A stretch of DNA of 14,135 nt, from assembly GCA_963811165.1 (NCBI GenBank), contig CAWEQH010000006.1, forward strand, positions 1 to 14,135, written 5' to 3'. The position numbers and the translations under genes are program-made. Shown here piece by piece: positions 1 to 14,135 of this stretch (position 1 is the stretch's first letter; every line of letters begins with the position of its first letter). The notes below the pieces were generated by a model. That model was given only the letters and a program-made list of their open reading frames with translations, had not been told where the DNA came from and searched no databases. The stretch comes from an uncultured Nitrospiraceae bacterium. Lineage in GTDB: Bacteria > Nitrospirota > Thermodesulfovibrionia > Thermodesulfovibrionales > UBA6898.

Positions 1-1
1 G

Positions 2-478
2 ACTATCGCCCACGCGGTCGAAAAAGAACTTCACGACCGGGGCATCAGGACCTATGTCCTCGACGGCGACAACGTCCGTCACGGCCTCAACGCCAACCTC
101 GGGTTCAACCCTGAGGACAGGAAAGAGAATATACGCAGGATCGGCGAGGTCGCGCGATTGATGGCCGATGCCGGCGTGCTCACCTTTGCCGCCTTTATCT
201 CCCCTTACAGGGAAGACAGGGACGCGGTCAGAAGGCTCTTTAAGGACGACAATTTTATTGAGATATACGTGAAGTGCTCCGTTGATGAATGCGAGCGGCG
301 CGACCCGAAGGGCCAGTATAAAAAGGCGCGTGCCGGCATCATAAAAAACTACACAGGCATCTCCGCGCCCTATGAGGAGCCCGAGACTCCCGAACTCGTC
401 ATAGATACGGAGGAGATGGACCTGGAAGGATCGAAAAGATGCGTCATAGAGTATCTCTGCGAAAAGAAGATCATTTAA
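2..478 (+). CDS. cysC: Adenylyl-sulfate (APS) kinase, 5' end outside the window
   Basis: Frame is open from base 2: [35 protein letters not shown]...[19 protein letters not shown]...FISPYREDR...[44 protein letters not shown] and RDPKG.Y are characteristic APS kinase motifs. The ORF-track start at 158 is internal. Confidence 0.95.
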
Positions 479-482
479 AAAC

Positions 483-498
483 AGTGAATAGTGAAAAG
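483..498. repeat. 7-bp tandem repeat AGTGAAT AGTGAAA AG
   Basis: Read directly, just after the cysC stop. Its reverse complement (ATTCACT) matches the ATTCACG/ATTCACA units inside manC. Confidence 0.5.
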
Positions 499-547
499 CT
501 GTCAACGACAGTGCGTAGTTAAAATACTGAACGCTCAATGCCAAATA

Positions 548-1411
548 ATGAATTTGACTGCTGAACAGGAGAACGAACAATGGACCTCGGTCATCCGCTC
601 CCGGACCAGGTGGTTCGATCTGAACTTGCCCGAGCTTTGGAAGTACCGGGACCTGATCATGCTCTTTGTGAGGAGAGACTTCGTCGCGATTTACAAGCAG
701 ACGGTCCTTGGTCCGCTGTGGTTCTTACTGCAGCCTCTTTTCTCGACCCTCGTCTTCACCGTCATCTTCGGACGGATCGCCCATATACCCACCGACGGCC
801 TGCCGCAGGTCGTCTTTTATATGGCGGGAATCGTCACCTGGAACTATTTTTCCTCATGCCTTACCAAGACCTCCGACACCTTTACCTCAAATGCCGTCAT
901 ATTCGGAAAGGTCTACTTCCCGAGGCTGGCGGTGCCTGTGTCCGCAGTGATAACGAACCTCCTGACCTTTGGGATCCAGTTCGTTCTGTTCCTTCTGTTC
1001 ATGGCCTTCTTTTCCCTTAAGGGCTCCGCAATCAGGCCGAATTACTGGGTCCTCCTGACCCCTTTGTTGCTGCTTCAGATGGCGGCGCTCGGCCTCGGTT
1101 TCGGGATACTGGTGTCGTCCCTCACCACAAAGTACAGGGACCTCACCTTCGTCGTAGGCTTCGGGGTCCAGCTCTGGATGTACGCAACCCCGGTCGTCTA
1201 TCCGATGTCCCAGATCCCCCGGAGATGGCAGTGGCTTTATACGCTCAATCCGATGGCGGCAGTCGTCGAGACCTTCCGCTTCGCCTTCCTCGGTGCAGGG
1301 TCTATCCAGGCGTGGCAGCTCGGCCTTAGCCTTCTCGTCACCTCGTTGGTGCTCCTCTTTGGGATCATACTCTTCAGCCGGATCGAAAAGACGTTTATGG
1401 ATACGGTCTGA
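548..1411 (+). CDS. wzm: ABC-2 polysaccharide/O-antigen exporter permease (Wzm/RfbA family)
   Basis: ELWKYRDLIMLFVRRDFVAIYKQTVLGPLW, KVYFPRL, YRDL and YATPVVYP motifs; about 6 hydrophobic segments; upstream of a Wzt ATPase. ATG 548 is preferred over GTG 491, which lies in the repeat. Confidence 0.93.
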   Translation: MNLTAEQENEQWTSVIRSRTRWFDLNLPELWKYRDLIMLFVRRDFVAIYKQTVLGPLWFLLQPLFSTLVFTVIFGRIAHIPTDGLPQVVFYMAGIVTWNYFSSCLTKTSDTFTSNAVIFGKVYFPRLAVPVSAVITNLLTFGIQFVLFLLFMAFFSLKGSAIRPNYWVLLTPLLLLQMAALGLGFGILVSSLTTKYRDLTFVVGFGVQLWMYATPVVYPMSQIPRRWQWLYTLNPMAAVVETFRFAFLGAGSIQAWQLGLSLLVTSLVLLFGIILFSRIEKTFMDTV

Positions 1412-1441
1412 ATCAAAAAAACTGTTCTTGGATATGCGCGA

Positions 1442-1541
1442 AGTGCTTAGTGCTTTGTTGAGAGTATAAAAAGGACGAACAAAGAACAAAAGATATGAAA
1501 ATAACCAGATTCGAAGATATAGGGACTAGGGACCAGGAATG
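1442..1541. repeat. Cluster of 7-bp tandem repeats: AGTGCTT x2 (1442-1455), GAACAAA x2 (1477-1490), AGGGACT AGGGACC AGGAATG (1521-1541)
   Basis: Read directly. TGCTTTGTT (1451-1459) and AACAAAGAA (1478-1486) are also an imperfect inverted pair. Confidence 0.65.
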
Positions 1542-1545
1542 GTGA
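1495..1545 (+). pseudogene. 16-aa micro-ORF MKITRFEDIGTRDQEW*, probable 5' remnant of a four-helix-bundle (TIGR02436 / 23S rRNA IVP-like) gene
   Basis: MKITRFEDI resembles the typical N-terminus of this family (MKIxRFEDL/IxxWQ, recalled). The similarity stops where the AGGGACT heptamer array starts. Its TGA overlaps an in-frame GTG of wzt (GTGA, 1542-1545). Confidence 0.6.
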
Positions 1546-2903
1546 GCAACAGCGTTGTTATTCGTATAGAAAACCTCTCCAAGGAATACCGGCTCGGGAC
1601 TATCAGCCACGGCACGCTCCAGCGCGATCTTCAGAGCTGGTGGGCGAGGATACGGGGCAGGGAAGACCCTAACTCGATAATCGGCATAGAGCAAAGCGAA
1701 AGGAGCATAGCGCATAGAGCAAAGCGAAACGCACCGAACGCTATGCAAGAAAATCCCCATTTCCTCGCTCTCGACGACGTTTCCTTCGAGGTGCATCAGG
1801 GCGAGGTGCTCGGCATCATCGGCAGAAACGGCGCCGGCAAGTCGACGCTGTTAAAGATATTGTCCAAGGTGACAGCGCCGACACGCGGTATCGTCAAGAT
1901 AAAAGGGCGCATCGCAAGCCTTCTTGAGGTGGGCACAGGTTTTCACCCTGAGCTGACGGGCCGTGAGAATGTGCACCTCAACGGCGCCATCCTCGGCATG
2001 ACAAAAAAGGAGATCGCCTCGAAGTTCGATGAGATCGTCGCCTTCTCGGAGATCGAACAATTCATCGACACCCCGGTGAAGCGTTATTCCTCCGGCATGT
2101 ATGTGCGGCTCGCCTTCGCAGTGGCGGCCCACCTGGAGCCTGAGATACTGATTGTCGATGAGGTGCTTGCCGTGGGAGATGCGGCGTTCCAAAAAAAATG
2201 CCTGGGGAAAATGGGAGATGTCGCAAAGGAAGGAAGAACGGTGTTGTTCGTGAGTCATAATATGGATGCGGTACTGAGACTTTGCAAGGCAGCGCTGCTC
2301 CTTAATAGGGGAACTATCCAGGCTGAAGGCAGCACAGAGGATGTAATCAATGTGTATTTGAAAGAAAATGTCGGTTCATCAGCAACTAAGCGATGGGATT
2401 TTTCTAAAGCACCGGGCGACGAAATAGTAAAGCTCCTTGAAGTATATGTTCATGATGAAAACAGAGAAGTCAAGGACAATTATGATATCTCAAAACCTCT
2501 AGGCATAACAATGAAATATGAAGTTCTAAAGGGGGGGTATGTTCTGTCACCTGCTTTTAATTTCTTCAACAATTATGGCTTGAATATATTTGATTCTCAC
2601 GATACAACTCCTGACAGACGTAATATTCCCAAACAGCCGGGAGTATATGTCTCTACAGTCTGGCTACCCGGCAATTTGCTTTCCGAAGGAATAGTAATTG
2701 TTGGCGCAGCAATGGTAACACCAGGTCCGTTCATCGTTCATTTTCAGGAAAAAGATATAGTTGCATTTACTATTATCGATACTTTTCAGCAAATATCTGC
2801 CAGAGGTGAATATGTGGGTTCGTTCCCTGGGGTGATAAGGCCTCTATTAAAATGGGATATTGGGTTAGAGGCCAATGCAAGAGGAGCAGGCAATGGCCGT
2901 TGA
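1539..2903 (+). CDS. wzt: ABC polysaccharide exporter ATPase with C-terminal carbohydrate-binding domain (Wzt/RfbB family)
   Basis: Walker A GRNGAGKST, signature YSSGM, Walker B ILIVDEVLAVGD, H-loop VSHN, plus an extra ~180-aa beta-rich C-terminal domain. The start may be ATG 1539 or GTG 1542. Confidence 0.95.
   Translation: MVSNSVVIRIENLSKEYRLGTISHGTLQRDLQSWWARIRGREDPNSIIGIEQSERSIAHRAKRNAPNAMQENPHFLALDDVSFEVHQGEVLGIIGRNGAGKSTLLKILSKVTAPTRGIVKIKGRIASLLEVGTGFHPELTGRENVHLNGAILGMTKKEIASKFDEIVAFSEIEQFIDTPVKRYSSGMYVRLAFAVAAHLEPEILIVDEVLAVGDAAFQKKCLGKMGDVAKEGRTVLFVSHNMDAVLRLCKAALLLNRGTIQAEGSTEDVINVYLKENVGSSATKRWDFSKAPGDEIVKLLEVYVHDENREVKDNYDISKPLGITMKYEVLKGGYVLSPAFNFFNNYGLNIFDSHDTTPDRRNIPKQPGVYVSTVWLPGNLLSEGIVIVGAAMVTPGPFIVHFQEKDIVAFTIIDTFQQISARGEYVGSFPGVIRPLLKWDIGLEANARGAGNGR
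1684..1746. repeat. In-frame heptamer array in wzt: GCATAGA GCAAAGC GAAAGGA GCATAGC GCATAGA GCAAAGC
   Basis: Exact 18-bp direct repeat GCATAGAGCAAAGCGAAA at 1684-1701 and 1712-1729 (offset 28 = 4x7). CGCTATGC (1739-1746) is the reverse complement of GCATAGCG (1705-1712). Confidence 0.85.
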
Positions 2904-3019
2904 ATAAAAAGATGATGAACGTTGTCATGGGCTGGTCGGCCCTTGCCCGTCTGGAAAGCTACCGGCAATAATAATGGGCCGTGACTCGTTGGACGCAAGA
3001 AATGAATGGGTCTTGCGCC

Positions 3020-3050
3020 TTGGCACATTCAAACCCTTATACGTTATAAT
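3020..3050 (+). promoter_or_regulatory. Possible sigma70 promoter for the gmd-like gene
   Basis: TTGGCA (3020-3025), 19 nt, then a perfect TATAAT (3045-3050). The spacer is longer than optimal. Confidence 0.3.
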
Positions 3051-3099
3051 AGCTCTCGTTGGAGCGGGCGCAGTACTTTGATTGTTCTGCCTCTGTGTA

Positions 3100-4077
3100 A
3101 TGAAAATGCATAAAAAGAAAGCTCTTATTTGCGGCGTATCAGGACAGGATGGGGCGTATCTTGCCCGTCTTTTACTCAACAAGGGATACGAGGTCTACGG
3201 GACATCCCGGGACGCCCAGGTCTCTTCGTTTCGTGGTCTTGCGAGTCTCGGCATTCGCGATAAGGTCGTCCTGGACTCCATGGCGGTCAATGATTTCCGC
3301 AGCGTGCTTCAGACCCTGTCGAAGGTCGCGCCTGACGAAGTCTATAACCTTGCGGGACAGAGCTCTGTGGAGCTCTCTTTCCAGCAGCCGGTGGAGACGC
3401 TCGAAAGCATCAGCGTAGGGGTCCTTAACCTGCTTGAGGCGATCCGTTTTATCGGCCTGCCCATCAGGTTCTATAACGCAGGGTCGAGCGAATGTTTCGG
3501 AGACACCCTCGGAGCGGCGGCCGACGAGACCACCCCTTTTCATCCCCGGAGCCCATACGCAGTGGCCAAGGCCACGGCCTTCTGGGAACTGGCCAACTAC
3601 CGCGAGGCCTATGGCCTTTTTGCCCTTACCGGCATCCTCTTTAACCATGAATCTCCGCTAAGGCCCGAGCGCTTCGTCACAAAAAAAATCATTAAGACGG
3701 CCTGCCGGATCGCCTCGGGGAGCAATGAAAAGCTTCACCTCGGAAATATATCCATCGCCAGGGACTGGGGCTGGGCCCCTGAATACGTGGAAGCGATGTG
3801 GATGATGCTTCAGGAGCCGCAGCCCGAAGACTTCGTGATCGCTACCGGAGAGACACATCACCTGGAAGAATTTGTGGCGGAGGCCTTTACTTGTGTCGGA
3901 CTTAACTGGCGCGACCATGTGGTCACTGACCCTTCCCTTTACAGGCCGACCGAGATCTCAATAGGGAGAGGCAATCCTGCCAAGGCTGAGAAGGTCCTCG
4001 GCTGGAAGGCCCGGTACAAGATGCCTGACGTGGTCCGTATGATGATGGAGCATGAACTCACATCGACAAAAGGGTAA
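3100..4077 (+). CDS. GDP-mannose 4,6-dehydratase-like SDR enzyme (short, divergent paralog)
   Basis: [11 protein letters not shown]ossmann motif, YNLAGQSSV, AGSSECFG, PRSPYAVAK (YxxxK), [16 protein letters not shown] and RDWG. Start is ATG 3100 or 3106 rather than TTG 3082. Confidence 0.88.
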   Translation: MKMHKKKALICGVSGQDGAYLARLLLNKGYEVYGTSRDAQVSSFRGLASLGIRDKVVLDSMAVNDFRSVLQTLSKVAPDEVYNLAGQSSVELSFQQPVETLESISVGVLNLLEAIRFIGLPIRFYNAGSSECFGDTLGAAADETTPFHPRSPYAVAKATAFWELANYREAYGLFALTGILFNHESPLRPERFVTKKIIKTACRIASGSNEKLHLGNISIARDWGWAPEYVEAMWMMLQEPQPEDFVIATGETHHLEEFVAEAFTCVGLNWRDHVVTDPSLYRPTEISIGRGNPAKAEKVLGWKARYKMPDVVRMMMEHELTSTKG

Positions 4078-4096
4078 TTGTGGTATATATTTTTTG

Positions 4097-4225
4097 CTGT
4101 CATTCCCGCAAGAGAAGCGCGTCGGGAATCCAACCCCCCTCTACCCCCCTTATCAAGGGGGAAGGGGCAGACCCTCCCCTGATACGGGGAGGCAGGGAGG
4201 GTTATCGGACAAGCCGGAGTGACAG
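4097..4225. repeat. Nested REP-like palindromic element
   Basis: Outer arms CTGTCATTCC (4097-4106) / GGAGTGACAG (4216-4225); hairpin ATTCCCG/CGGGAAT (4102-4108/4123-4129). An inner unit AACCC...GGGTT (4132-4203) has hairpins CCCCCTT-ATC-AAGGGGG (4145-4161) and CCTCCCC-TGATAC-GGGGAGG (4173-4192). Confidence 0.85.
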
Positions 4226-4271
4226 AGCGAAAACAGTCACTTAAAAAGCATAACAACAAGGAGACGATATA

Positions 4272-5357
4272 ATGAAGACAGCTTTGATTACCGGCATTAC
4301 GGGACAGGATGGCGCCTATCTTGCTGAATTTCTTCTGGATAAGGGGTACGCGGTCCACGGGATAAAGCGGAGGGCGTCTCTTTTTAATACCGACAGGATC
4401 GACCATCTCTATAAAGACCCCCATGAAAGAGGGGTGAAGTTCAAGCTCCATTACGGGGACCTGACCGATGCGACGAACCTCATCCGCATTATCCAGGAAA
4501 CCAGACCTGACGAAATATATAACCTTGCCGCCCAGAGCCATGTCATGGTCTCTTTCGAGACTCCTGAGTACACTGCGAATGCCGACGCCCTCGGTGCCTT
4601 AAGGCTCCTTGAGGCGATCAGGATCCTGGGGCTTTCGCAAAAAACGCGTTTTTACCAGGCCTCCACTTCGGAATTGTACGGCAAGGCACAGGAGTCACCC
4701 CAGACGGAAAAAACCCCCTTTTATCCAAGGAGCCCTTACGGCGTTGCAAAACTCTATTCCTACTGGATCACGGTCAACTACCGCGAGGCCTACGACTTCT
4801 TCGCCTGTAACGGCATCCTCTTTAACCATGAGTCCCCTGTCCGCGGCGAAACCTTTGTGACCAGGAAGATCACCCGTGCGGTGGCGAGGATAAAACTCGG
4901 GCTGCAGGAGAAACTCTTTCTCGGCAACCTCAATGCAAAACGCGACTGGGGCCATGCAAAAGACTATATAGAGGCGCAATGGCTGATACTCCAGCAGGAC
5001 AAGCCGGATGATTATGTCATCGCAACCGGCAAGCAGCATTCCGTCAGAGAGTTCGTGGAGAGTTCGTTTCATGAGATCGGCATCGATATCGGCTGGAAAG
5101 GCGACGGCAGCGACGAAAAAGGATATGACAAGGGCACAGGGAATGTCATTGTCGAGATAGACAAGCGTTATTTCCGGCCGACCGAGGTGGAAACGCTCCT
5201 TGGGGACCCTTCAAAAGCAAAGGAGAAGCTCGGCTGGTCGCCGAAGGTCGGCTTCAAGGAGCTGGTCAGCGAGATGGTCCGTGAGGACCTCAAAGAGGCA
5301 GAGCGGGACCAGCTTTGTAAAAGGGAAGGGTTCCGGACGTTTAAGTATCATGAATAA
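4272..5357 (+). CDS. gmd: GDP-mannose 4,6-dehydratase
   Basis: Canonical sequence: [82 protein letters not shown]-like AAGGAG at 4258-4263. Confidence 0.97.
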
Positions 5358-6279
5358 GTCCTCGAAAATCTACGTCGCCGGACACCGCGGGCTTGTCGGG
5401 ACGGCAATCTGCAGAAGGCTTGGATCTGAAGGATACCGCAACCTGGTTCTGAGGACCAGCAAGGAACTCGACCTCATCAGGCAGGCCGATGTTGAGGCCT
5501 TTTTTGAGAAGGAGAGGCCGGAATATGTCTTCCTTGCTGCGGCCAAGGTGGGGGGCATCTTCGCCAATGACACCTATCGCGCCGACTTCATTTACAACAA
5601 TATCATGATGGAGGCAAACGTAATCCATTCCTCCTGGCAGCATAGCGTAAAAAAACTTCTGTTCCTCGGAAGCTCATGCATCTACCCGAAGTTCTGCCCC
5701 CAGCCCATGAAGGAGGAATATCTCCTCACGGGGGAGCTCGAACCGACGAACGAGCCGTATGCGGTCGCAAAGATAGCGGGAATTAAGATGTGCCAGGCAT
5801 ATAACGCGCAGTATAAGACAAATTTTATTTCTGTGATGCCTACTAACCTTTACGGGCCGTTCGACAACTTCAACTTAGAGACGTCCCATGTCCTCCCCGC
5901 ACTCATTCGGAAGTTTCATGAGGCCAAAATGGAGAATAAATCCTCGGTTGCCATCTGGGGCACGGGTACCCCCCGGAGGGAATTCCTTTATATAGACGAC
6001 CTCGCAGAAGCCTGCGTCTTTCTTATGGAAAACTATGACGGCCCTGGGATCGTAAACATCGGCACAGGAGAAGACATTTCGATCGCCGATCTCGCAATGT
6101 TAGTCGGCGAGGTAGTAGGGTATAAAGGCGCCATCGTCTATGACAGCTCGAAACCGGACGGCACCCCCAGGAAACTCCTCGAGGTGTCAAGACTGCGCTC
6201 CCTCGGCTGGAAGGCAAAAACAGGCCTCAGGGAGGGAATCGCGAAGACATATGAGTGGTACTTGGAAAATAAAGGCTAA
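5350..6279 (+). CDS. fcl: GDP-L-fucose synthase (GDP-4-keto-6-deoxymannose epimerase/reductase)
   Basis: [61 protein letters not shown] and [11 protein letters not shown] 5350 overlaps the gmd stop (ATGAATAA); the ORF-track start at 5200 is over-extended. Confidence 0.96.
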
Positions 6280-6340
6280 GGTTATGAAACTGAGGTCAAG
6301 GTTCAAGGAATACATTCTCGGCCTCGATCTGAACCTGGGT
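6272..6340. repeat. 6-bp degenerate arrays in inverted arrangement: AAGGCT AAGGTT ... GAGGTC AAGGTT, then CTCGGC CTCGAT CTGAAC CTGGGT
   Basis: Read directly at the fcl 3' end and intergenic region. AGGTTCA (6299-6305) can pair with TGAACCT (6330-6336). Confidence 0.55.
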
Positions 6341-6383
6341 CCGTTGGCCTAGCAATATATTTTAGTAACCCGGAGGGAATTCA

Positions 6384-7886
6384 ATGAAGGCCATCATCCT
6401 TGCAGGCGGAAGCGGGACGCGTCTCTGGCCCCTTTCGAGAAAGAACTACCCGAAGCAGTTTTTGAAAATCAACAGCTGCACCGAGGGGGCCGGTTGCGCC
6501 TTTGACAGGGGGTCCCTTATCCAACAGACGGTTACACGACTCCTGAAAGCCCTCAGTCCCCAAGACGTCCTGATCATGACCAACGACGAATATAAGTTCC
6601 ATGTGAAGACTGATCTCGATTCCCTGTCTGAAGACGTGTCGGGCAATATCGTTTTAGAACCCTTCAAGAAAAACACCGCCCCTGCCATCGCCCTTGCTCT
6701 TAGATACTGCGTAGACAAGCTCGGTTGTGGTGACGACGAGGTCGTTTTCATCTCTCCTTCGGACCATATAATCGAGCCCGAGCCAAAATTCATTCAGTAC
6801 CTTGGAGCAGCGGAGAAAGCGGCAAAACAGGGAGTTATCGTAACCTTCGGGATAAAACCGCTCTATCCTGAAACGGGATACGGGTATATAAAATGCAAAG
6901 AGCAAAAAGCACCAATCAGTCAGCGTTCTGCCGTCGGCGATCAGCTGCCGGATGTCGATTCACGATTCACAATTCACGATTCAGCTGGTTCTGAACCATA
7001 TCTCGAAGTGGAGAGGTTCGTCGAAAAACCTGACGCACTAACGGCAAAAAAGTATCTGAAGGACGGGGGATATTACTGGAATTCCGGGATGTTTGCTTTC
7101 ACGATCGGGACGATGATAAAGGAGTTTCGGAGGCATGCCCCCGAGATAGCGGCACTCTATGACTCAGGGTATGACAATATGGTTTCGTCTTTCGAAGAGA
7201 TGCCGGACATATCGATCGATTACGCGGTGATGGAGCGGGCGGACACTGTGGTCACCATGCCGATGGACATCAAATGGAACGACGTGGGCTCCTGGGACTC
7301 CATGTTCGAAGTCTTCCCCAAAGACCAGGCAGGGAATGTAAAGATCGGGGACGTGATTTCGCACGATACGAAGAACACGCTGATAATAAGCGACAAGAGG
7401 CTGATCGCCGCGGTAGGACTCGAGAACCTGCTCGTCGTCGAGACGGACGATGCCATACTCATCGCAAAGCGCGGCGATGCGCAGAAGGTAAAGCATATTG
7501 TCGAAACACTGAGCGCGGAGGGACGGAGGGAGGCGTCGGAGCACACCACGACCTACAGGCCCTGGGGCAGTTATACCATTTTAGAGGACGGGCAGCGGTA
7601 CAAAATCAAGAGGATAGTGGTAAACAAGGGGGAAAAACTCAGCCTCCAGATGCACCTTCACAGAAGCGAACACTGGGTGGTAATCAAGGGGACGGCCCGG
7701 GTGACTATCGGGGATGAGCTTAAGTTCGTGCACGAAAATGAGAGCATCTACATCCCCAAGTCGACACTTCACCGTCTCGAAAATCCGGGCAAGGTCCCTC
7801 TTGAGATCATCGAGGTCCAAAACGGAGAATACGTCGAGGAAGACGACATCATACGGGTGGACGATATCTATGGAAGAAAGAAATAG
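6384..7886 (+). CDS. manC: Mannose-1-phosphate guanylyltransferase / mannose-6-phosphate isomerase (bifunctional)
   Basis: ILAGGSGTRLWPLSR..YPKQF, NTAPAI, PSDH, ETGYGYI, FVEKP, WNSGMF, SIDYAVME and WNDVGSW; C-terminal cupin RPWGSY...SLQMHLHRSEHW...HRLENPG...EVQNG. SD-like GGAGGG upstream. Confidence 0.96.
   Translation: MKAIILAGGSGTRLWPLSRKNYPKQFLKINSCTEGAGCAFDRGSLIQQTVTRLLKALSPQDVLIMTNDEYKFHVKTDLDSLSEDVSGNIVLEPFKKNTAPAIALALRYCVDKLGCGDDEVVFISPSDHIIEPEPKFIQYLGAAEKAAKQGVIVTFGIKPLYPETGYGYIKCKEQKAPISQRSAVGDQLPDVDSRFTIHDSAGSEPYLEVERFVEKPDALTAKKYLKDGGYYWNSGMFAFTIGTMIKEFRRHAPEIAALYDSGYDNMVSSFEEMPDISIDYAVMERADTVVTMPMDIKWNDVGSWDSMFEVFPKDQAGNVKIGDVISHDTKNTLIISDKRLIAAVGLENLLVVETDDAILIAKRGDAQKVKHIVETLSAEGRREASEHTTTYRPWGSYTILEDGQRYKIKRIVVNKGEKLSLQMHLHRSEHWVVIKGTARVTIGDELKFVHENESIYIPKSTLHRLENPGKVPLEIIEVQNGEYVEEDDIIRVDDIYGRKK
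6895..6984. repeat. In-frame composite heptamer arrays in manC
   Basis: GCAAAGA GCAAAAA (6895-6908); TCAGCGT TCTGCCG TCGGCGA TCAGCTG (6920-6947); GATTCAC GATTCAC AATTCAC GATTCAG (6957-6984). Translates within KEQKAPISQRSAVGDQLPDVDSRFTIHDS. Confidence 0.85.
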
Positions 7887-7905
7887 AGAGAGTCAAATCG
7901 GTGAC

Positions 7906-7982
7906 TGAGGTCTTAGGTCAGAGGCATTGATAAATTTTACCGCCTTACGCCTCGCGCAACAATCCTCAATAATCAGACCTCA
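7906..7982. repeat. Heptamer arrays with inverted arms between convergent manC and cytochrome genes (possible bidirectional terminator structure)
   Basis: TGAGGTC TTAGGTC AGAGGCA (7906-7926); CGCCTTA CGCCTCG (7941-7954). AGACCTCA (7975-7982) is the reverse complement of TGAGGTCT (7906-7913). Confidence 0.6.
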
Positions 7983-7998
7983 CTAGGCTTACTCATTG

Positions 7999-9312
7999 CT
8001 ACTTTCCCTTTGGCTTTTCCGCAGGCTTTTCCGCTTCCGGTGCTTTTCCGGGTGTTTTCCGGTCATAATTGTATGTCTTATGGCACCCCGGCGAGCATTG
8101 TCCGCCGGTCTCCGTCTTTACATATCTAAGAGGAAGTTCCCATTTGCCAAAAGGAGTGCTCTCCGCAATAAGCTTTGGGTTTGGGCTGCCATGTACACTG
8201 TGACAAAGCCTGCAGGTCCTTCCCTTCTCTTTGTTGACATGGAGATAATGCAAGTTCCTATCGCCGTCCCTGAAACCGGTAGCAAAAGATGTGTCCGGAA
8301 AACGAAGCAAGTCCCTGTTGTGGCAGCTGAAACATAGCTCATATTCCTTATCGGTGTAAGTGGCATACACATCGGAAGGAAATTCCTTGACCAAAAGCTT
8401 TTGGTTCTTCGAGCCGTGGGGATTATGACAGGGCGTACACTTACCGGCTGCGATCGGCCCGTGGAGGAACTTCATGTTCTTTTTTATAATGTTCTTATGG
8501 CACCCGAGACAGAGGTCCTTCCCCTGCTTCACGAGGAGTTTATCGTTGTCGCTTGAATGAGGGGAATGGCAGGAGACGCATCCCTGCTCACTCTTTACAG
8601 GAGCGTGAACGACCTTGGCCTTTTCAACTGTTTCTTCGATCTGAGGATGACACTGAAAGCAGACTTTTCCCCCAACCTCAGGCAACAACTTTTTGAAGGA
8701 AGAACCATGAGGATTGTGGCATGAAGGACACCCGCCAAGCACAGCCCCATGAATGACTTTTTTCTTCATCATATCCTCCATGTCCGTGTGACAGCCGAAA
8801 CACAACTCAGGGCCGCCTTTTAAAAGCAGCTTCTCGTTATCGGATTCATGAGGGGAATGACAGGCAGTACAATCTCCCGCTGAAGTAGGACCATGCAAAT
8901 ATTTGAAGTTCACCTTGTCCGGATGACATGATAAACAGAGGTCCTTCACAGGCTGCGTCAGCAATTTAGATTCATCTGATGAGTGAGGATTATGACACGT
9001 CGTGCACATGCCGTCCTTGACGGGAGGATGGATATGAGGTTTTTTCCCGAACGGCGTATGGCACGTAAAGCAAAGATCAGGGACATTCTGGTTGAGCTTG
9101 AAGGTCTCCTTGCCTTTCTGAGGGTGCGGTGACGACGCCGACTGATGGCAGGTGTCGCACGGCTCTGCGACGGGATGGACATCTTTTCCCTTTAGCAGCG
9201 TCGGATGGCACTGACCGGTGACGCAACTCTCTTCCGCCGTCACCCGCGTATTTAGCGCAATAAAGACAGTTGCCATAGCAAAGAAGACCAGCAGTAACGA
9301 TAATTTCTTCAC
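7999..9312 (-). CDS. Periplasmic multiheme c-type cytochrome (doubled-CxxCH repeat family), 15 predicted hemes
   Basis: Signal peptide MKKLSLLLVFFAMATVFIALNTRVTA; 13 CxxCH motifs plus CVTGQCH (CX4CH) and CSPGCH (CX3CH); repeating H.P...G.CxxCH.PH.S....LL......LCxxCH unit of about 40 aa; GTG start. Confidence 0.93.
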   Translation of the reverse strand: MKKLSLLLVFFAMATVFIALNTRVTAEESCVTGQCHPTLLKGKDVHPVAEPCDTCHQSASSPHPQKGKETFKLNQNVPDLCFTCHTPFGKKPHIHPPVKDGMCTTCHNPHSSDESKLLTQPVKDLCLSCHPDKVNFKYLHGPTSAGDCTACHSPHESDNEKLLLKGGPELCFGCHTDMEDMMKKKVIHGAVLGGCPSCHNPHGSSFKKLLPEVGGKVCFQCHPQIEETVEKAKVVHAPVKSEQGCVSCHSPHSSDNDKLLVKQGKDLCLGCHKNIIKKNMKFLHGPIAAGKCTPCHNPHGSKNQKLLVKEFPSDVYATYTDKEYELCFSCHNRDLLRFPDTSFATGFRDGDRNLHYLHVNKEKGRTCRLCHSVHGSPNPKLIAESTPFGKWELPLRYVKTETGGQCSPGCHKTYNYDRKTPGKAPEAEKPAEKPKGK

Positions 9313-9322
9313 ACCAATTTGA

Positions 9323-9352
9323 ATTATAACAAAATATTTTTTTAAAAAACAA
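9323..9352 (-). promoter_or_regulatory. Sigma70-type extended -10 promoter for the cytochrome gene
   Basis: Minus strand reads TTGTTT-18 nt-TATAAT with a perfect TGTTATAAT (9331-9323), ending 10 nt before the GTG. Confidence 0.6.
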
Positions 9353-9485
9353 GCACCCTGCTGCCAATAATTTAGAAGGTAATTAGGTTAGGTTAGCCGC
9401 CTCACGTCAGTGGACAGGACATCTGAGGCAAATTTTTAATAATAAGCGAGCATACTAACCCAAATTTTATAGCGCCGGGAACAGC

Positions 9486-9540
9486 TGACTTTTGCCATCA
9501 TTGCTTTGGTCAAATGACCGATTGGATAGGTAATTTTCCC
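9486..9540. promoter_or_regulatory. Three phased candidate enhancer (UAS) sites for a sigma54 activator
   Basis: TGAC-TTTT-GCCA (9486-9497), GGTC-AAAT-GACC (9508-9519, palindromic arms) and GGTA-ATTT-TCCC (9529-9540). Spacings are 22 and 21 bp, about 100-150 bp upstream of the -24/-12 element. Confidence 0.55.
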
Positions 9541-9637
9541 GGACACGCGGCTTACCGGCTACCGAGGCCGGCCGAAGGAACGTGAATTTTTCCCCATAAA
9601 TAAGCCCTTTCCTTTTTCCGCCGACAACTCAGAATCA

Positions 9638-9653
9638 TGGTATAAGAATTGCT
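9638..9653 (+). promoter_or_regulatory. Sigma54 (-24/-12) promoter for the REC-PilZ gene
   Basis: TGGTATAAGAATTGCT: GG-N10-GC with TTGCT, matching the TGGYRYR-N4-TTGCW consensus. A sigma54 activator is encoded in the neighbouring operon. Confidence 0.7.
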
Positions 9654-9666
9654 TATTTTTTAGACG

Positions 9667-10341
9667 GTGAAGAAAATTCTTGTCCTTGATAATAGTCCAT
9701 TTATTCGCTATCTCCTGACGCGTACGCTTCAGAGCGATGTCACGTCCGTGGTAACGGCGTCGAACATCGAGAAGGCGTTCGTCGCGGTCAAGGAGCAGCC
9801 GCATGATCTTTTTTTCCTTGACATGCAGATGCTGAATAATTCTTCCATGGGAGAGACATTAAGGTCACTCAAGGGACTTTCCCCTCAAATTAAGATCATG
9901 ATGATGTCGGAGACCTATCCCGGCGATGAGACGTTCAGAGAACTTAATGAAATGATGGACGTGTTCATACCGAAACCGTTCTTCCCGTCGGAGATCAGGC
10001 GTCTGGCCGGTCAATCCCTGGGACTGGGCGAGCATTACTGGGACCGCTATGAGACGATCGAAGATACTACAATTTCCCAAAAAAGGCGGGAGGATAGGGT
10101 CCCGGCCACAGAGACAATAGATTTTACGGTGAGCACCGTACGGGGCGGAAGCGAGTCGGTCAGCCTGAAAGGGAACGTCATCAATAGAAGCCCTTCCGGG
10201 ATCGGAATGCTTACGGAATACCCGATCGTCCCGGGCAACCTCGTGATGCTTACTAACGGGACGGAGCTTCATGAAGGCATCGTCACCTGGAGTCGCAAGA
10301 TGGACGATACTACATACAGCGCCGGGATCTTTTTTGTTTAA
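9667..10341 (+). CDS. Response regulator: receiver domain plus PilZ-like C-terminal domain
   Basis: REC: KKILVLDNS...LFFLDMQM (phospho-Asp)...MMMSE...FIPKPF. C-terminus has RREDR (RxxxR) and NRSPSG (D/NxSxxG), then G.VTWSR......YSAGIFF, typical of PilZ barrels. Confidence 0.8.
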   Translation: MKKILVLDNSPFIRYLLTRTLQSDVTSVVTASNIEKAFVAVKEQPHDLFFLDMQMLNNSSMGETLRSLKGLSPQIKIMMMSETYPGDETFRELNEMMDVFIPKPFFPSEIRRLAGQSLGLGEHYWDRYETIEDTTISQKRREDRVPATETIDFTVSTVRGGSESVSLKGNVINRSPSGIGMLTEYPIVPGNLVMLTNGTELHEGIVTWSRKMDDTTYSAGIFFV

Positions 10342-10352
10342 ATCAGAGGGGT

Positions 10353-11747
10353 TTATTCCAGCCCGAATTTTCTGATCTGGTAACGGAAAGAATCGTAACT
10401 CATATTAAGAAGTTTTGCGGCGCCTGACTTGTTATTCTGTGTCCGCTCAAGTGCCTGCTTTATCAAATCCCTCTCCAGGTCCTCAAGTGAAATACCCTCC
10501 GCAGGGAGGGTAAATCCGTCCTTCCGCAACTGCTGTTCTCCGGGCTTATCGAACAGCCAATTCGGGAGATGTTCGGGAACGATTTCTTCCGCATTCTCAA
10601 GCACGACGATCCTCTCGATGAGGTTCTTGAGTTCTCTCACGTTACCGGGCCACGCGTATGCATTCAGAAGCTTTTCCACGGCAGGTGAAAAACCCCTGAA
10701 CATTTTTTTATTGTATTTCCCCGAAAAAAGCGAGAGAAAGTGTTCGGCAAGGACAATGATATCCTCCCTTCTCTCCCTCAGCGGGGGTATATGAAGATAA
10801 AAGGCACTCAGCCGGTAGAAGAGGTCCTTTCTGAACGAGCCGTTTTTCACCGCGTCGGCGAGGTCGCGGTTCGTCGTGGCAATCACCGTGACTTCGATTG
10901 GGATATCGTCCTTTCCACCGAGACGTCTGACCGTCCGCTCCTCGAGGACACGAAGGAGCGCAGTCTGCAGATGGGGTTCCATCTCGCCGACCTCATCAAG
11001 CAATATGGTGCCGCCTATCGCTAGTTCGAACAGGCCTTTCTTGTCCGCACGCGCATCCGTGAACGCACCTTTCTCGTACCCGAACAGTTCGCTCTCCAGC
11101 AGGTGGTGCGGCAATGCAGCACAGTTGACGCCCACAAACGGCTCGCGCCGCGCATTGCCTTCATCGTACATGAGATTGTGGATATACCGCGCGAGAACTT
11201 CTTTCCCTGTGCCGCTTTCTCCCGTAATCAGGATACTCGTCACGCGCGCATCCGCCATCTTGGCGACCTTAGCCTTGATATCTACTATCGCCGGCGACTG
11301 TCCAACCAAATCGCCCTTCATGTAAGTAGAGTTGACCTTCCGCAGGTAATCGACCTCCTGCTCAAGCCTCTTGTTTTCAATCACTTTGCCGATGACGATT
11401 TTTACCTCTTCGATATTGAAAGGCTTGGTCAGATAATCGGCCGCTCCGAGCTTCATGGCCCTGACCGCTGTTTCGGCCGTATCGTCCGCAGTCAGCATGA
11501 CGACCTTGGCCGGGAGTCCGCTTTCGCGGATTTCCTGAAGGATATCGATGCCGTTTCGGCCGGGAAGATTTACATCGAGCAATACCACATCCGGAAACCA
11601 CGCCCTCACCTTGTTCAAGACGTCTACCGCGGTCACATCGGACATTATCTCATAGCCTTCCCTCTCGAGTGCCCTTGACAGGGTCAGCACAATGAGTTCA
11701 TCGTCTTCGATAATGAAAAGCTTCCTTTTCTTCCTCAAGGATTTCAT
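10353..11747 (-). CDS. Sigma54-dependent NtrC-family response regulator (REC-AAA+-Fis HTH)
   Basis: IIEDD...LLDVNLP...LTA...KPF receiver; GESGTGKE Walker A; ESELFGYEKGAFTDA; LLDEVGE Walker B; FRKDLFYRL; WPGNVREL; C-terminal NKSGAAKLLNMS HTH. 4-nt ATGA overlap with the kinase gene. Confidence 0.96.
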   Translation of the reverse strand: MKSLRKKRKLFIIEDDELIVLTLSRALEREGYEIMSDVTAVDVLNKVRAWFPDVVLLDVNLPGRNGIDILQEIRESGLPAKVVMLTADDTAETAVRAMKLGAADYLTKPFNIEEVKIVIGKVIENKRLEQEVDYLRKVNSTYMKGDLVGQSPAIVDIKAKVAKMADARVTSILITGESGTGKEVLARYIHNLMYDEGNARREPFVGVNCAALPHHLLESELFGYEKGAFTDARADKKGLFELAIGGTILLDEVGEMEPHLQTALLRVLEERTVRRLGGKDDIPIEVTVIATTNRDLADAVKNGSFRKDLFYRLSAFYLHIPPLRERREDIIVLAEHFLSLFSGKYNKKMFRGFSPAVEKLLNAYAWPGNVRELKNLIERIVVLENAEEIVPEHLPNWLFDKPGEQQLRKDGFTLPAEGISLEDLERDLIKQALERTQNNKSGAAKLLNMSYDSFRYQIRKFGLE

Positions 11748-13189
11748 AGACAGTTCCTTGTTTGCGGGAAAGAGATCGTAAACGTCGCCCCGCCATCCGG
11801 ATTGTTTTCGACCCCTATCGCCCCCTCATGCTGTTCAATAAGGCGCTTAATGATTGCCAGGCCCAGGCCGGTCCCTTTGCGTTTCGTCGTAAAAAACGGC
11901 TGGAATATTTTGCCCATGCACCCCTCTTCGATCCCCTTTCCCGTATCGGAGACCCGTACCCCGATTGTTTGGCTCGACTGCTCATAGAAGGTTTTCACGT
12001 GCAGCGTCCCGCCCTCGGGCATGGCCTCGGCCGCGTTTAGGAGGAGGTTAAGGAATATCTGTCTAAGCTGCAGGGGGTCCGCCGGCACATTAGGGATATG
12101 TTCTTCGAAATCTTTGACGACCATAATCGCCGTTCCGTTACGCAAAGTAAAAGAAGGATGCTTCAGGGCGAAGGAAACGATCATAGAGAGGACGCTGTTG
12201 ATATCGACATCCACGTACTGCGGCTTCGGCGGCTTTGCGAAGTTCAGCAGGTCTTTCATCAGCGATTCAATCCGGATCACGTCTTCGACCGCCTTCAAAA
12301 GGAGCGCCCTGTCCTGCGGCGCAACATTAGATTCCTGGGAAATGAGCTCTATGGCGCCCCTTACGCCGGCAAGCGGGTTTTTGATCTCATGGGCCAATCC
12401 TGCCGCCACTTCCCCCAGCACGATGCCCTGCTCGATCCGCTGCATCTTCGTGAAGTGCTCTTTCAAAGAGCCGGCCATTTCGTTCATCGAACTCGCCACC
12501 TCTCCAAATTCCTGCTGCAATCCTTCTACCCGGTAATCGAGGTCGCCCTCTTTCAAGCGTCTCGTGGCATAGAGAAGTTTGTTCATCGGGCGCGTAAACG
12601 TCCTGATAAAGAAATAAGACAACCCGAAAATAAGAAGCGGCCCCATAAACAGGAGCACGTAAAGGATGATCTTTGTGCCGGAGATCTTCGTGAGGGTCGC
12701 CTGGGTCCGTTGTTGGAGTCTCTTCGTCGTGAGCGCGACCATGTCATCAACCTTGGTCATCAGGTTCTGCCCTATCGCAAACGCAGCGTCTTCTTCTTCT
12801 CCCAGCCTCTTTACGTCGGCGTGAATGGTAAAGGCCCTGCTCAATGAATTCCTGTACTCATCTATGAGACCCCTTATGTTATTGATCCTTCCCGTTACGG
12901 TTTCGTTATGATGACAGGACAAACAGGCGTCAGCGACGCGCTGCAGGTTTCTGACGTCTTTGACCACAATATCAGTACCTCTGGCATAGCGCGTATTTTT
13001 GAGACTTAGGTCGGACTGGACCCGTTTGATCTGGAGCTGGAGATGCTCCCGCAATATCTCAACCTGATGCAGCAGGATCAGCTCGTCAAGAGACGACGTT
13101 GACCGCTCGATAGAAAAAATAATATAGAACACGCCGATGACAAACATCAGCGAGAAAATACCCAGTCCGACGATAATTGTTCTTTTCAT
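11744..13189 (-). CDS. Membrane sensor histidine kinase with periplasmic CxxCH heme-c motif, HAMP, HisKA and HATPase domains
   Basis: Two TM helices flank a ~145-aa helical periplasmic region containing CLSCH (12911-12925). HAMP RPMNKL...GDLDYRV...EFGEVASSMNEM; H-box AHEIKNPL; N-box NLLLNAAEAM; DTGKGI; FQPFFTTK; GTGLGL. Confidence 0.95.
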   Translation of the reverse strand: MKRTIIVGLGIFSLMFVIGVFYIIFSIERSTSSLDELILLHQVEILREHLQLQIKRVQSDLSLKNTRYARGTDIVVKDVRNLQRVADACLSCHHNETVTGRINNIRGLIDEYRNSLSRAFTIHADVKRLGEEEDAAFAIGQNLMTKVDDMVALTTKRLQQRTQATLTKISGTKIILYVLLFMGPLLIFGLSYFFIRTFTRPMNKLLYATRRLKEGDLDYRVEGLQQEFGEVASSMNEMAGSLKEHFTKMQRIEQGIVLGEVAAGLAHEIKNPLAGVRGAIELISQESNVAPQDRALLLKAVEDVIRIESLMKDLLNFAKPPKPQYVDVDINSVLSMIVSFALKHPSFTLRNGTAIMVVKDFEEHIPNVPADPLQLRQIFLNLLLNAAEAMPEGGTLHVKTFYEQSSQTIGVRVSDTGKGIEEGCMGKIFQPFFTTKRKGTGLGLAIIKRLIEQHEGAIGVENNPDGGATFTISFPQTRNCL

Positions 13190-14095
13190 TTAATTCGTGT
13201 AGTCGTAAGTAGAAAGATCGAGATGGATTCCTTCAGCATACCGCCGTACGGGTTCAAAGTCGGCGTCAGTTGTCGGGATAAATCTCTGCGCCCCGAAATC
13301 ACTTAGTACGGCTTTGCCTTCCGGATCGTTGTTCATGGTCAGCAGCGCCTCCCTCAGCCTCCCTTTGATTTCTTCGCCGATGTCCTTTCTGAGCGCCAGG
13401 CTGTTCTCCGGCACCTCGGGCGACCTCTGAAGTATAACCAAATCCTCCCCTATCCTGTTGTCCGCCTTCGCAAGCCTCTCAAAAATAGTATTCTTTGCCG
13501 CACCGATATCGGCCTTCTTATTCAGCACATCGTAGATTACATCTTCGTGGGTCCCGGCAAAATAGGTCTCCCTGAAAAAAGCATGGAAGTTTTTAATGCC
13601 GTTCTTATGAAAGTAGTGCAGGGGCAAGAGGTACCCCGCCGTCGTTGCCTTATCCACGAAGGCGAATCTCTTTTCCCGCATGTCTGCGGCCGTTTTAATG
13701 CCGCTGTCCTTGCGCACAAAAATCAGCCCGTAGTAGGTCGATATACCCTCAGGAGTTTCCGGCCGTGCAACGGCCTCAACCCCGAGCTTCGCGTGTGCAA
13801 GGGTGTAGGTGAAACTCCCGAAAAAAGCACCGTCCATCCCTTTTGAAACGAAGGTATCGATGATGTTGCCGTAACGGGGAAGGACGACCAGATTTATTTT
13901 GTATCCCGTACGCGCCTGCAGATATCTGGCAAGCGGTTCATAACGTTCCATCTGATTGAAGATATTCTGTTCAGGGATGAGCCCTATTACCAGGGTTTTC
14001 AGGGGAGGCTGCTTATTGACGGTCACCGCTTTTTTTTCGCTGCATCCAGCCAAAAGCATAACGCCCATGCACCAGGCAATAATAAAGACCTTCAC
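13190..14095 (-). CDS. PhnD/PtxB-family (phosphonate/phosphite/oxyanion) periplasmic binding lipoprotein
   Basis: Lipobox LLAG-C; IGLIPEQ, TYYGLIFVRKDSGI, RFAFVDKATTAGYLLP, FAGTHEDVI and SPEVPE...RKD are PhnD-family features. Its stop abuts the kinase ATG (TAAATG); GTG start. Confidence 0.9.
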   Translation of the reverse strand: MKVFIIAWCMGVMLLAGCSEKKAVTVNKQPPLKTLVIGLIPEQNIFNQMERYEPLARYLQARTGYKINLVVLPRYGNIIDTFVSKGMDGAFFGSFTYTLAHAKLGVEAVARPETPEGISTYYGLIFVRKDSGIKTAADMREKRFAFVDKATTAGYLLPLHYFHKNGIKNFHAFFRETYFAGTHEDVIYDVLNKKADIGAAKNTIFERLAKADNRIGEDLVILQRSPEVPENSLALRKDIGEEIKGRLREALLTMNNDPEGKAVLSDFGAQRFIPTTDADFEPVRRYAEGIHLDLSTYDYTN

Positions 14096-14101
14096 CTTAT
14101 A

Positions 14102-14132
14102 ATTATAATATTTTACATAAAGGGAAGGTCAA
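14102..14132 (-). promoter_or_regulatory. Sigma70 promoter of the binding protein-kinase-regulator operon
   Basis: Minus strand: TTGACC (14132-14127), then overlapping TATTAT (16-nt spacer) or TATAAT (19-nt spacer, 14107-14102), ending 6 nt before the GTG. Confidence 0.6.
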
Positions 14133-14135
14133 GTC

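Follow-up and report, generated by a model that had tools for sequence, protein, structure and literature searches.

The PhnD-like fold serves in sensing in TtrS and ThsS, which respond to tetrathionate and thiosulfate and carry the PhnD-like domain fused within the kinase. In XylFII-LytS, TorT-TorS and HptA-HptS a separate binding protein acts on the periplasmic domain of the kinase, and we know of no heme motif described for these sensors. A periplasmic CxxCH motif in a membrane receptor, with varied outputs, is found in DcrA, GSU0582, GSU0935, GSU0303, Tll0287 and the Cache_heme proteins; these heme-c sensors have PAS or Cache folds, according to the consulted portions of two sources (PMC8396549; bioRxiv 10.64898/2026.05.25.727664). 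In the arsenic systems AioX/AioS/AioR, ArxXSR and ArrXSR, a PF12974 binding protein, a kinase and an AtoC-type sigma-54 activator are clustered without a transporter and have a respiratory output, as set out in the part of PMC5908839 consulted. The signals that switch on genes for cytochrome nanowires and for other means of extracellular electron transfer are largely an open question, above all beyond Geobacter. Here we analyze a 14,135-nt stretch of DNA (the window) from an uncultured Nitrospiraceae bacterium (assembly GCA_963811165.1, contig CAWEQH010000006.1, positions 1 to 14,135 of the forward strand), in which a first-pass annotation had proposed an AioXSR-like layout. The layout is indeed present: a PhnD-fold lipoprotein, a histidine kinase with a periplasmic CxxCH motif and a sigma-54 activator are clustered without a transporter. 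This three-gene unit is real, conserved and apparently undescribed; the first-pass annotation did not recognize it as a characterized system, and a full-text literature search, which most subscription papers and supplements lay outside, returned no description of the receptor or of the enhancer reported below. We consider it probable that the unit is a binding-protein-assisted two-component system, in which an anion-capturing lipoprotein and a heme-motif kinase act through the sigma-54 activator to drive a REC-PilZ gene and OmcS-, OmcE- and MtrC-like cytochrome genes.

The triad is read on the (-) strand in the order binding protein (13190..14095, 301 aa), kinase (11744..13189, 481 aa) and NtrC/AtoC-type sigma-54 response regulator (10353..11747, 464 aa). 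Its genes are tightly coupled, as had been noted: the TAA of the binding-protein gene is followed directly by the ATG of the kinase gene (0 nt), and the kinase and activator genes overlap by ATGA. The REC-PilZ gene and a multiheme cytochrome gene lie downstream, and a check of open reading frames (ORFs) placed all five genes where the first-pass annotation had put them. The window is an entire contig (C6) of its genome (G000), with an upstream end 40 nt before the start codon of the binding-protein gene, and no overlap that would extend it was found with the other contigs of that genome, although a related contig (X3) continues past the window. The five-gene arrangement is not an assembly artefact, because a 95%-identical contig from a peat metagenome covers positions 8014-14135 unbroken and keeps the entire gene arrangement.

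The binding protein matches PF12974 and scores 182.5 bits against the PhnD equivalog TIGR03431, whose cutoff is 261.1; its family comprises 3925 clusters at E <= 1e-40. It has a lipobox (LAGC18) and cysteines at positions 9 and 18 only, in agreement with the earlier statement that the mature chain has no cysteine beyond the lipid anchor. The predicted model (predicted local distance difference test score, pLDDT, 93.6) matches ligand-bound ArrX first (template-modeling score 0.87), then PtxB and AioX, and a sequence search of solved structures gave PtxB as best. The hidden Markov model of TtrS matches it weakly (E 8.5e-4); unlike the fused domain of TtrS and ThsS, the PhnD-fold protein is separate here and the kinase has its own heme-motif domain. 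The pocket is formed by E42, Y75, G93, T96, Y121, T151, T152, A153, H183, K201 and N231, and among 80 family members Y75 and E42 are each conserved in 79/80, H183 in 76/80 and K201 in 75/80. From the AioX/ArrX pocket (Tyr88, Tyr131, Ser161, Ser163, His192 and Asp210), Tyr75, Tyr121, Thr151 and His183 are retained here, and Thr152 is retained too when the pocket is compared with the description in the consulted part of PMC5908839. The first-pass annotation had pointed to GAFFGSFTY in place of the arsenite-binding cysteine of AioX. Its glycine (Gly93) aligns with the ArrX cysteine, no member has a cysteine there (0/80), and Cys106 of AioX corresponds to Gly65 of PhnD in the same part of PMC5908839. 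The third serine of the PhnD/PtxB S-T-S triad (AioX Ser163) is Ala153, an alanine in 64/80 members, and Lys201 occupies the position of AioX Asp210 and PhnD Asn175; identity to AioX, ArxX and ArrX is about 23-25%.

An arsenic sensor was considered and rejected, the arsenic-binding cysteine being absent and the sensor fold different: the kinase sensor is predicted to be a four-helix bundle and carries CxxCHH, and the part of PMC8050422 consulted lists AioS as sCache-like. The predicted targets are multiheme cytochromes here and arsenic molybdoenzymes there. No aio, arx or arr molybdoenzyme gene recurs among the neighbor representatives scanned, and the six molybdopterin loci of the genome are on other contigs. 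Judged by gene order and residues, the system works like AioXSR but is not a member of it. As for the ligand, the pocket has an anion-like character, and Lys201 suggests a fully deprotonated anion. Our leading guess, a tentative one, is a sulfur oxyanion, favored because the genome has dsrAB; an anion of the phosphate or phosphite type is distinctly less likely, and a nitrogen oxyanion, a small carboxylate and some other class of anion or molecule are each somewhat less likely again.

That the protein is instead a subunit of a phosphonate or phosphite ABC transporter, whose permease is encoded past the end of the contig or at another place and whose link to kinase and cytochromes is incidental, is very improbable. 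PtxB is its best sequence match among solved structures, the contig stops just upstream, and some relatives have a gene for another binding protein (PF04392) ahead of it. However, the genome, which is 95% complete, holds no PhnE above cutoff, and phnC and phnE were not recognized among the recurring neighbor genes of relatives, including those with 10 kb of upstream sequence, where unrelated genes are found (77 of the 88 neighbor clusters were scanned). In a small tree from a quick search, 32 sampled family members form one side of a branch (Shimodaira-Hasegawa-like approximate likelihood ratio test, SH-aLRT, 100), apart from 13 other rows comprising transporter PhnD, PtxB, selenate proteins and orphan PhnD-fold proteins; AioX and ArrX are outside this tree, and its Cupriavidus outgroup row was read in the wrong frame and is uninformative. 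Nesting among transporter proteins, named in the first-pass annotation as a result that would count against its proposal, is not seen in this tree. Together with the kinase synteny and the predicted complex described below, these results led us to reject the transporter role, which is largely refuted; by sequence, the binding protein is an orphan (transporter-less) member of a distinct clade.

Members of the family also occur in other settings. A subclade of binding proteins (loci L040, L042, L044, L046-L053, L055, L058 and L059) has no receptor gene beside it and lies behind cutA, often beside a DNA ligase gene; action in trans is suggested, because some of those genomes carry a heme-motif receptor elsewhere. 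In five further loci (L041, L097, L101, L109 and L110), genes for a 9-heme cytochrome, an MtrB/PioB-like porin and a PF04392 binding protein lie directly upstream of the binding-protein and receptor genes. In the genome of the window, PhnD-fold domains are fused C-terminally to two chemoreceptor-like proteins (C4:196759-199608 and C8:568362-570890), one of them with CxxCH, and a free-standing PhnD-fold protein is encoded within a che gene cluster (C10:50293-51189). By domain content and gene context, these other PhnD-fold domains are tied to chemotaxis.

The proposal that the orphan binding protein works with the kinase is borne out by synteny, co-occurrence and structure prediction. We fetched 80 loci by matches to the kinase domain alone, choosing the stronger matches, several per genome; among the 78 with upstream room, the binding-protein gene stands directly before the receptor gene in 54 (16/18 in the same class, 18/20 in another phylum and 20/40 in family f22). 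Across 301 Nitrospirota genomes, 73 of the 75 with a binding protein (E <= 1e-75, at most 7 candidates scored per genome) carry the sensor domain too, as do 45/45 with an activator ortholog. The predicted complex of lipoprotein and sensor domain reaches an ipSAE (interaction prediction score from aligned errors) of 0.85, against 0.00 for the best control, with a contact agreement between runs of at least 98% and a partner pLDDT of at least 91; the mark used for this score is reached by 116 of 157 solved pairs and by 2 of 215 mismatched pairs. In the model both lobes of the binding protein sit on the membrane-distal tip of the sensor, at about residues 72-83 and 113-128 of the kinase and not near the CxxCH motif, and the interface residues S117 and T121 are invariant in 74/74 paired kinases. 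The prediction supports binding of the lipoprotein to the sensor, and likeness to solved complexes of binding proteins and of bundles may contribute to it. Distances among paired binding proteins and sensors correlate (Spearman 0.49), which is not used here as evidence of co-evolution because shared ancestry yields the same correlation.

The kinase has two transmembrane (TM) segments followed by HAMP, HisKA and HATPase domains, with H267 as its candidate phospho-accepting histidine. The periplasmic CxxCH noted earlier is CLSCH at residues 89-93, between the TM segments, and extends to CxxCHH (residues 89-94; 12908..12925, (-) strand). The domain that contains it (residues 24-175; 12665..13120, (-) strand) is predicted, with a pLDDT of 84, to consist of four helices and no strand, giving an up-down four-helix bundle between two TM segments followed by HAMP. 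The fold resembles the sensors of Vc1313, LytS, Adeh_2942, McpN and NarQ (Z 12-15), with a Z of 14.7 and a root-mean-square deviation of 2.0 over 117 residues for the LytS sensor 5xsd; values of 13-15 are common among helical bundles and therefore show fold, not kinship. Residues 24-175 have no meaningful sequence match in Pfam, NCBIfam or PDB, Foldseek gave no match to the model at E <= 0.001, and Cache and PF11845 were searched in 23 members with no match; the Atlas look-alikes score 0.92-0.94 with fewer than 170 shared features. The modeled sensor is a four-helix bundle with no match to a named family, and not a Cache domain. In contrast to the heme-c PAS and Cache sensors, the domain is all-helical, matches no Pfam family and is paired with a binding protein; from XylFII-LytS, TorT-TorS and HptA-HptS the system differs in the family of the binding protein.

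The residues C89, C92, H93, H94 and H41 are invariant in 121/121 close homologs, and 81/82 receptors from the loci contain CxxCH. Helix boundaries, used here with no coordinates, put the motif where helix 2 comes nearest to the membrane and at the same height as H41 of helix 1, and H41 is therefore a candidate for the sixth ligand. These features, and the ResB and CcsA homologs for cytochrome c maturation encoded in the genome, suggest that CxxCHH likely holds a c-type heme. The closest named relative of the kinase is that of Candidatus Sulfobium mesophilum (85% over the sensor region), in keeping with a Nitrospirota anaerobe as the source. A profile of the sensor collects 312 representatives at 50% clustering and is found in 98/301 Nitrospirota genomes and in 26/401 genomes of a second phylum (record titled 'uncultured delta proteobacterium'); the receptors that carry it include simple kinases, others with an added PAS or GAF domain, hybrid kinases and GGDEF-EAL proteins. 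A GGDEF-EAL form at L195:5691-12085 has the binding protein downstream and adjoins cbb3-type oxidase genes, a neighborhood that hints at oxygen or redox sensing.

Two simpler readings of the receptor have to be weighed. The binding protein might supply the only signal, the CxxCH being structural (a disulfide or a bundle-stabilizing heme) with no sensing of redox state or gas. The predicted interface does not contact the motif, the heme itself is a prediction, and one relative (L112) has a binding protein and no CxxCH. But nearly all members retain the motif, H41 and H94, even in genomes where no binding protein was detected, and an invariant histidine after CxxC would be needless for a mere disulfide; we regard this reading as unlikely. 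QseG acts as an accessory or modulator for QseE, and in the same manner the heme receptor could be the primary sensor, of redox potential or of a gas such as NO or O2, with the binding protein a constitutive accessory that has no important small ligand. In its favor, no binding protein was found at cutoff in 15/45 activator-bearing genomes, none is adjacent in 24/78 kinase loci, the third serine of the S-T-S triad is replaced in most members, as described above, and no oxyanion reductase or oxidase recurs among the neighbor representatives scanned. Two points weigh against the two-input system itself: a binding protein is also missing at cutoff from 25/98 sensor-positive genomes, so it is not obligatory, and pocket residues alone are not decisive for specificity in the PhnD-like fold, according to the consulted portion of PMC5908839. 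Yet the cleft residues Y75, E42, H183 and K201 are strongly conserved, the model matches ligand-bound ArrX structures best, and the predicted interface uses both lobes. We consider a receptor of this kind slightly less likely still than one with a structural CxxCH, and retain the two-input system as the preferred interpretation.

The output of that system can be followed at the level of DNA, which is new. The activator has the phospho-accepting D58 in its REC domain, a GAFTDA loop and a Fis-type helix-turn-helix. An ortholog follows the receptor gene in 36 loci, and in 26/36 a convergent REC or REC-PilZ gene is present. In the window this conserved fourth member lies at 9667..10341 ((+) strand), convergent with the regulator gene, and is a predicted direct target. 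Its earlier description as a REC-PilZ protein holds for REC, which Pfam recognizes; the PilZ motifs RxxxR and NxSxxG are present, and PF07238 matches 5/7 relatives scanned and not the protein of the window. A sigma-54 promoter precedes the REC gene in 23/27 loci, as against 0.57 in shuffles; that of the window (-24/-12; 9637..9653, (+) strand) agrees with the consensus at 8/9 positions. A motif search above those 23 promoters returned a tandem palindrome with a consensus of about TGGTGAWWTCACCA, its two copies mostly 21-23 bp apart, and in a leave-one-out test 20/23 scored above all 100 shuffles. In the window this enhancer (9507..9541, no strand) comprises two 14-bp sites, 9507-9520 and 9528-9541, spaced 21 bp apart, and is a predicted binding site of the regulator. 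Enhancer and sigma-54 promoter occur together in 31/36 activator loci, a count inflated, and to be discounted in our argument, because the enhancer model was trained on REC-PilZ promoters; the corresponding counts are 7/65 for loci with other receptors and 0/22 for loci with a binding protein only. We infer that the activator binds the tandem palindromic enhancer.

Within the genome of the window, 3 of 252 sigma-54-like sites stand out with scores of 23-28, the next being 15.0 and 10.7. They lie before the REC-PilZ gene, before a very short ORF on C10 and before a gene cut by a contig end on C7. The C10 site (C10:738526, (-) strand; L200) combines a strong enhancer with a sigma-54 promoter, and nothing but a hydrophobic ORF of ~40 codons comes after it; the product may be a small RNA or a short membrane protein. 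At C7:35508-36007 (L201:13509-14008), a strong enhancer and sigma-54 site precede an OmcE-like gene cut by the contig end and frameshifted in the signal-peptide region; over 50 residues, the fragment shares 60% identity with a four-heme protein that matches 7TFS (1e-16), which we take to be the OmcE filament structure. Strong enhancer pairs with no paired sigma-54 site are found at C4:757104 and C10:538746 (24.5 and 25.5), the former just upstream of another pair of kinase and sigma-54 regulator genes.

The first-pass annotation had placed respiratory electron-transfer genes under the control of the system, and had suggested a search of gene neighborhoods for multiheme cytochromes. Genes with four or more hemes are present in 24/36 activator-bearing loci and in 11/64 other receptor loci, a split chosen after inspection of the loci and for which p 1e-6 overstates the enrichment, a point against our interpretation, because kin are not independent. 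Over all receptor loci the enrichment is weak (22/81, against 15.6% of 20-kb windows of the genome). An enhancer and a sigma-54 promoter lie within 1.8 kb upstream of 17/40 multiheme ORFs in activator loci, compared with 38/374 other ORFs there and with 2/12 and 0/3 multiheme ORFs in other locus groups. Among these 17 targets, 7 are OmcS-like (one matches 6EF8 at 9e-68, and 6 others match it at 36-78%), one is OmcE-like and some are MtrC/OmcA-like. Out of sample, 7 of 20 OmcE-like genes collected by protein search have enhancer and promoter, where 0.01 would be expected; one of the seven had been seen previously and two are in genomes that gave training sites. At L198:13311-17135, one enhancer serves as the shared upstream element of divergent sigma-54 promoters, one for the cytochrome c maturation genes resB-ccsA, co-oriented with the triad, and one for an OmcE-like cytochrome gene.

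Several observations count against so simple an output. In activator loci, 23/40 multiheme ORFs have no enhancer and promoter within 1.8 kb, some of them being downstream members of operons. In the genome of the window, none of the 42 ORFs with four or more CxxCH has the pair (0/42), and its two further OmcE-like genes (C8:641287 and C10:896646) are intact and have none. In another genome (G032) an enhancer precedes an OmcE-like gene, yet the best activator is only 46% identical. Within the window, no canonical sigma-54 site lies upstream of the 15-heme gene (best 3/9), and in the closest relatives with downstream sequence (L031, L033 and L034) no 15-heme gene lies beside the triad. Because multiheme ORFs of the genome have no site and G032 has a site with no close activator ortholog, the regulon is taken to be selective, and related activators may read the same enhancer. 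Comparison of promoters across loci makes a regulon of electron-exporting cytochromes likely at the family level; within any one genome it would take in selected genes, and related activators possibly share it.

The neighboring cytochrome is a different matter. Its gene (7999..9312, (-) strand), divergent from the REC-PilZ gene, encodes a periplasmic multiheme cytochrome c, called a 15-heme protein in the first-pass annotation: 13 of the motifs are canonical CxxCH, and the two others, a CX4CH and a CX3CH, are atypical. That the gene is a fixed part of the locus is not supported, since it is missing beside the triad in those three relatives. It shares the intergenic enhancer with the REC-PilZ gene, and the sequence above it offers only a near-match, GG-N9-GC, whose spacing is too short for sigma-54 by one base; no indel is found there among those listed for four aligned runs. 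Its place in the regulon is uncertain on this promoter sequence, and its promoter is predicted not to be sigma-54-driven; the claim of control over respiratory genes is supported at the level of the family.

In Geobacter sulfurreducens, a kinase and a sigma-54 activator, GSU2507 and GSU2506, lie beside omcS and affect cytochrome expression, according to the part of PMC11077965 consulted. In the published annotation (PMC10599522, consulted in part), GSU2507 is a Cache_1/HAMP kinase of 621 aa and GSU2506 has PAS. Compared by annotation, the likeness lies in the position beside the OmcS gene alone, and GSU2507 as the same receptor was rejected, at that level of comparison, on its Cache_1 annotation. 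A 2026 survey of OmcE clusters notes Nitrospirota homologs, and a term search of its main text found no kinase or RpoN.

Taken together, these results provide the basis for a model. The PhnD-fold lipoprotein likely captures a small anion and, in the predicted complex, docks on the tip of the four-helix sensor of the kinase. A c-type heme bound at CxxCHH would be the second input; H93 would be its proximal ligand, and H41 and H94 are the candidates for the sixth. The signal would pass through TM2 and HAMP to H267 and on to D58, and the phosphorylated activator would then bind the enhancer and switch on the REC-PilZ gene and OmcS-, OmcE- and MtrC-like cytochrome genes. Such a system may adjust extracellular electron transfer both to redox conditions in the periplasm and to how much of a soluble anion is available. 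Its basis is gene order, domain content, the invariance of motifs and the enhancer and sigma-54 sites before target genes, all read from sequence; the four-helix fold and the docking of both lobes are model predictions. The genome has the rpoN gene, homologs of ResB and CcsA, and dsrAB in frameshifted pieces.

A bolder version, which we put forward tentatively and hold less probable than the model itself, is that this is a new receptor class: a heme-c bundle reading redox state or gas on its membrane-proximal side and a ligand-loaded binding protein distally, acting as a coincidence detector and as a master switch for OmcS/OmcE nanowire and MtrC-type genes in uncultured Nitrospirota and Desulfobacterota-like bacteria. 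If true, this would amount to a new receptor architecture, in which a heme-c sensor of four helices also docks a binding protein and which recurs with outputs of the kinase, hybrid-kinase and GGDEF-EAL kinds. The system offers a compact, testable chain: two soluble domains suited to expression and their predicted interface, a candidate site for heme, the activator, an explicit enhancer sequence and named promoters. With the enhancer motif, electron-transfer regulons can also be predicted in uncultured bacteria of sediment and groundwater.

The remaining features of the window are minor. A putative sigma-70-like site (14105..14132, (-) strand), 3 nt from the contig end, is the best (10/12) of 9 matches where 5.7 are expected by chance. 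The earlier assignment of its own promoter to the binding-protein gene stays unproven, because the contig offers just 40 nt of sequence before the gene; in relatives, unrelated genes on the same strand often precede the binding-protein gene. Positions 2-7886 hold an ordinary polysaccharide cluster with wzm/wzt, two GDP-mannose dehydratases, a GDP-fucose-synthase-like epimerase and manC, together with an adenylylsulfate-kinase-like fragment recognized by sequence alone. In freshwater genera, glycosylation genes follow OmcE clusters (PMC13712944), and by analogy a link between them and this polysaccharide cluster is possible. Elsewhere in the genome, C7:27800-35300 and C8:231910-234154 are rich in frameshifts (in pieces of a kinase, of sigma-54 regulators, of a cytochrome and of dsrAB), which are probably assembly errors. 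Two molybdopterin enzymes with an in-frame TGA (C8:341236 and C10:105376) are probably selenocysteine formate dehydrogenases, and the genome contains 42 ORFs, those scanned above, with four or more CxxCH motifs.

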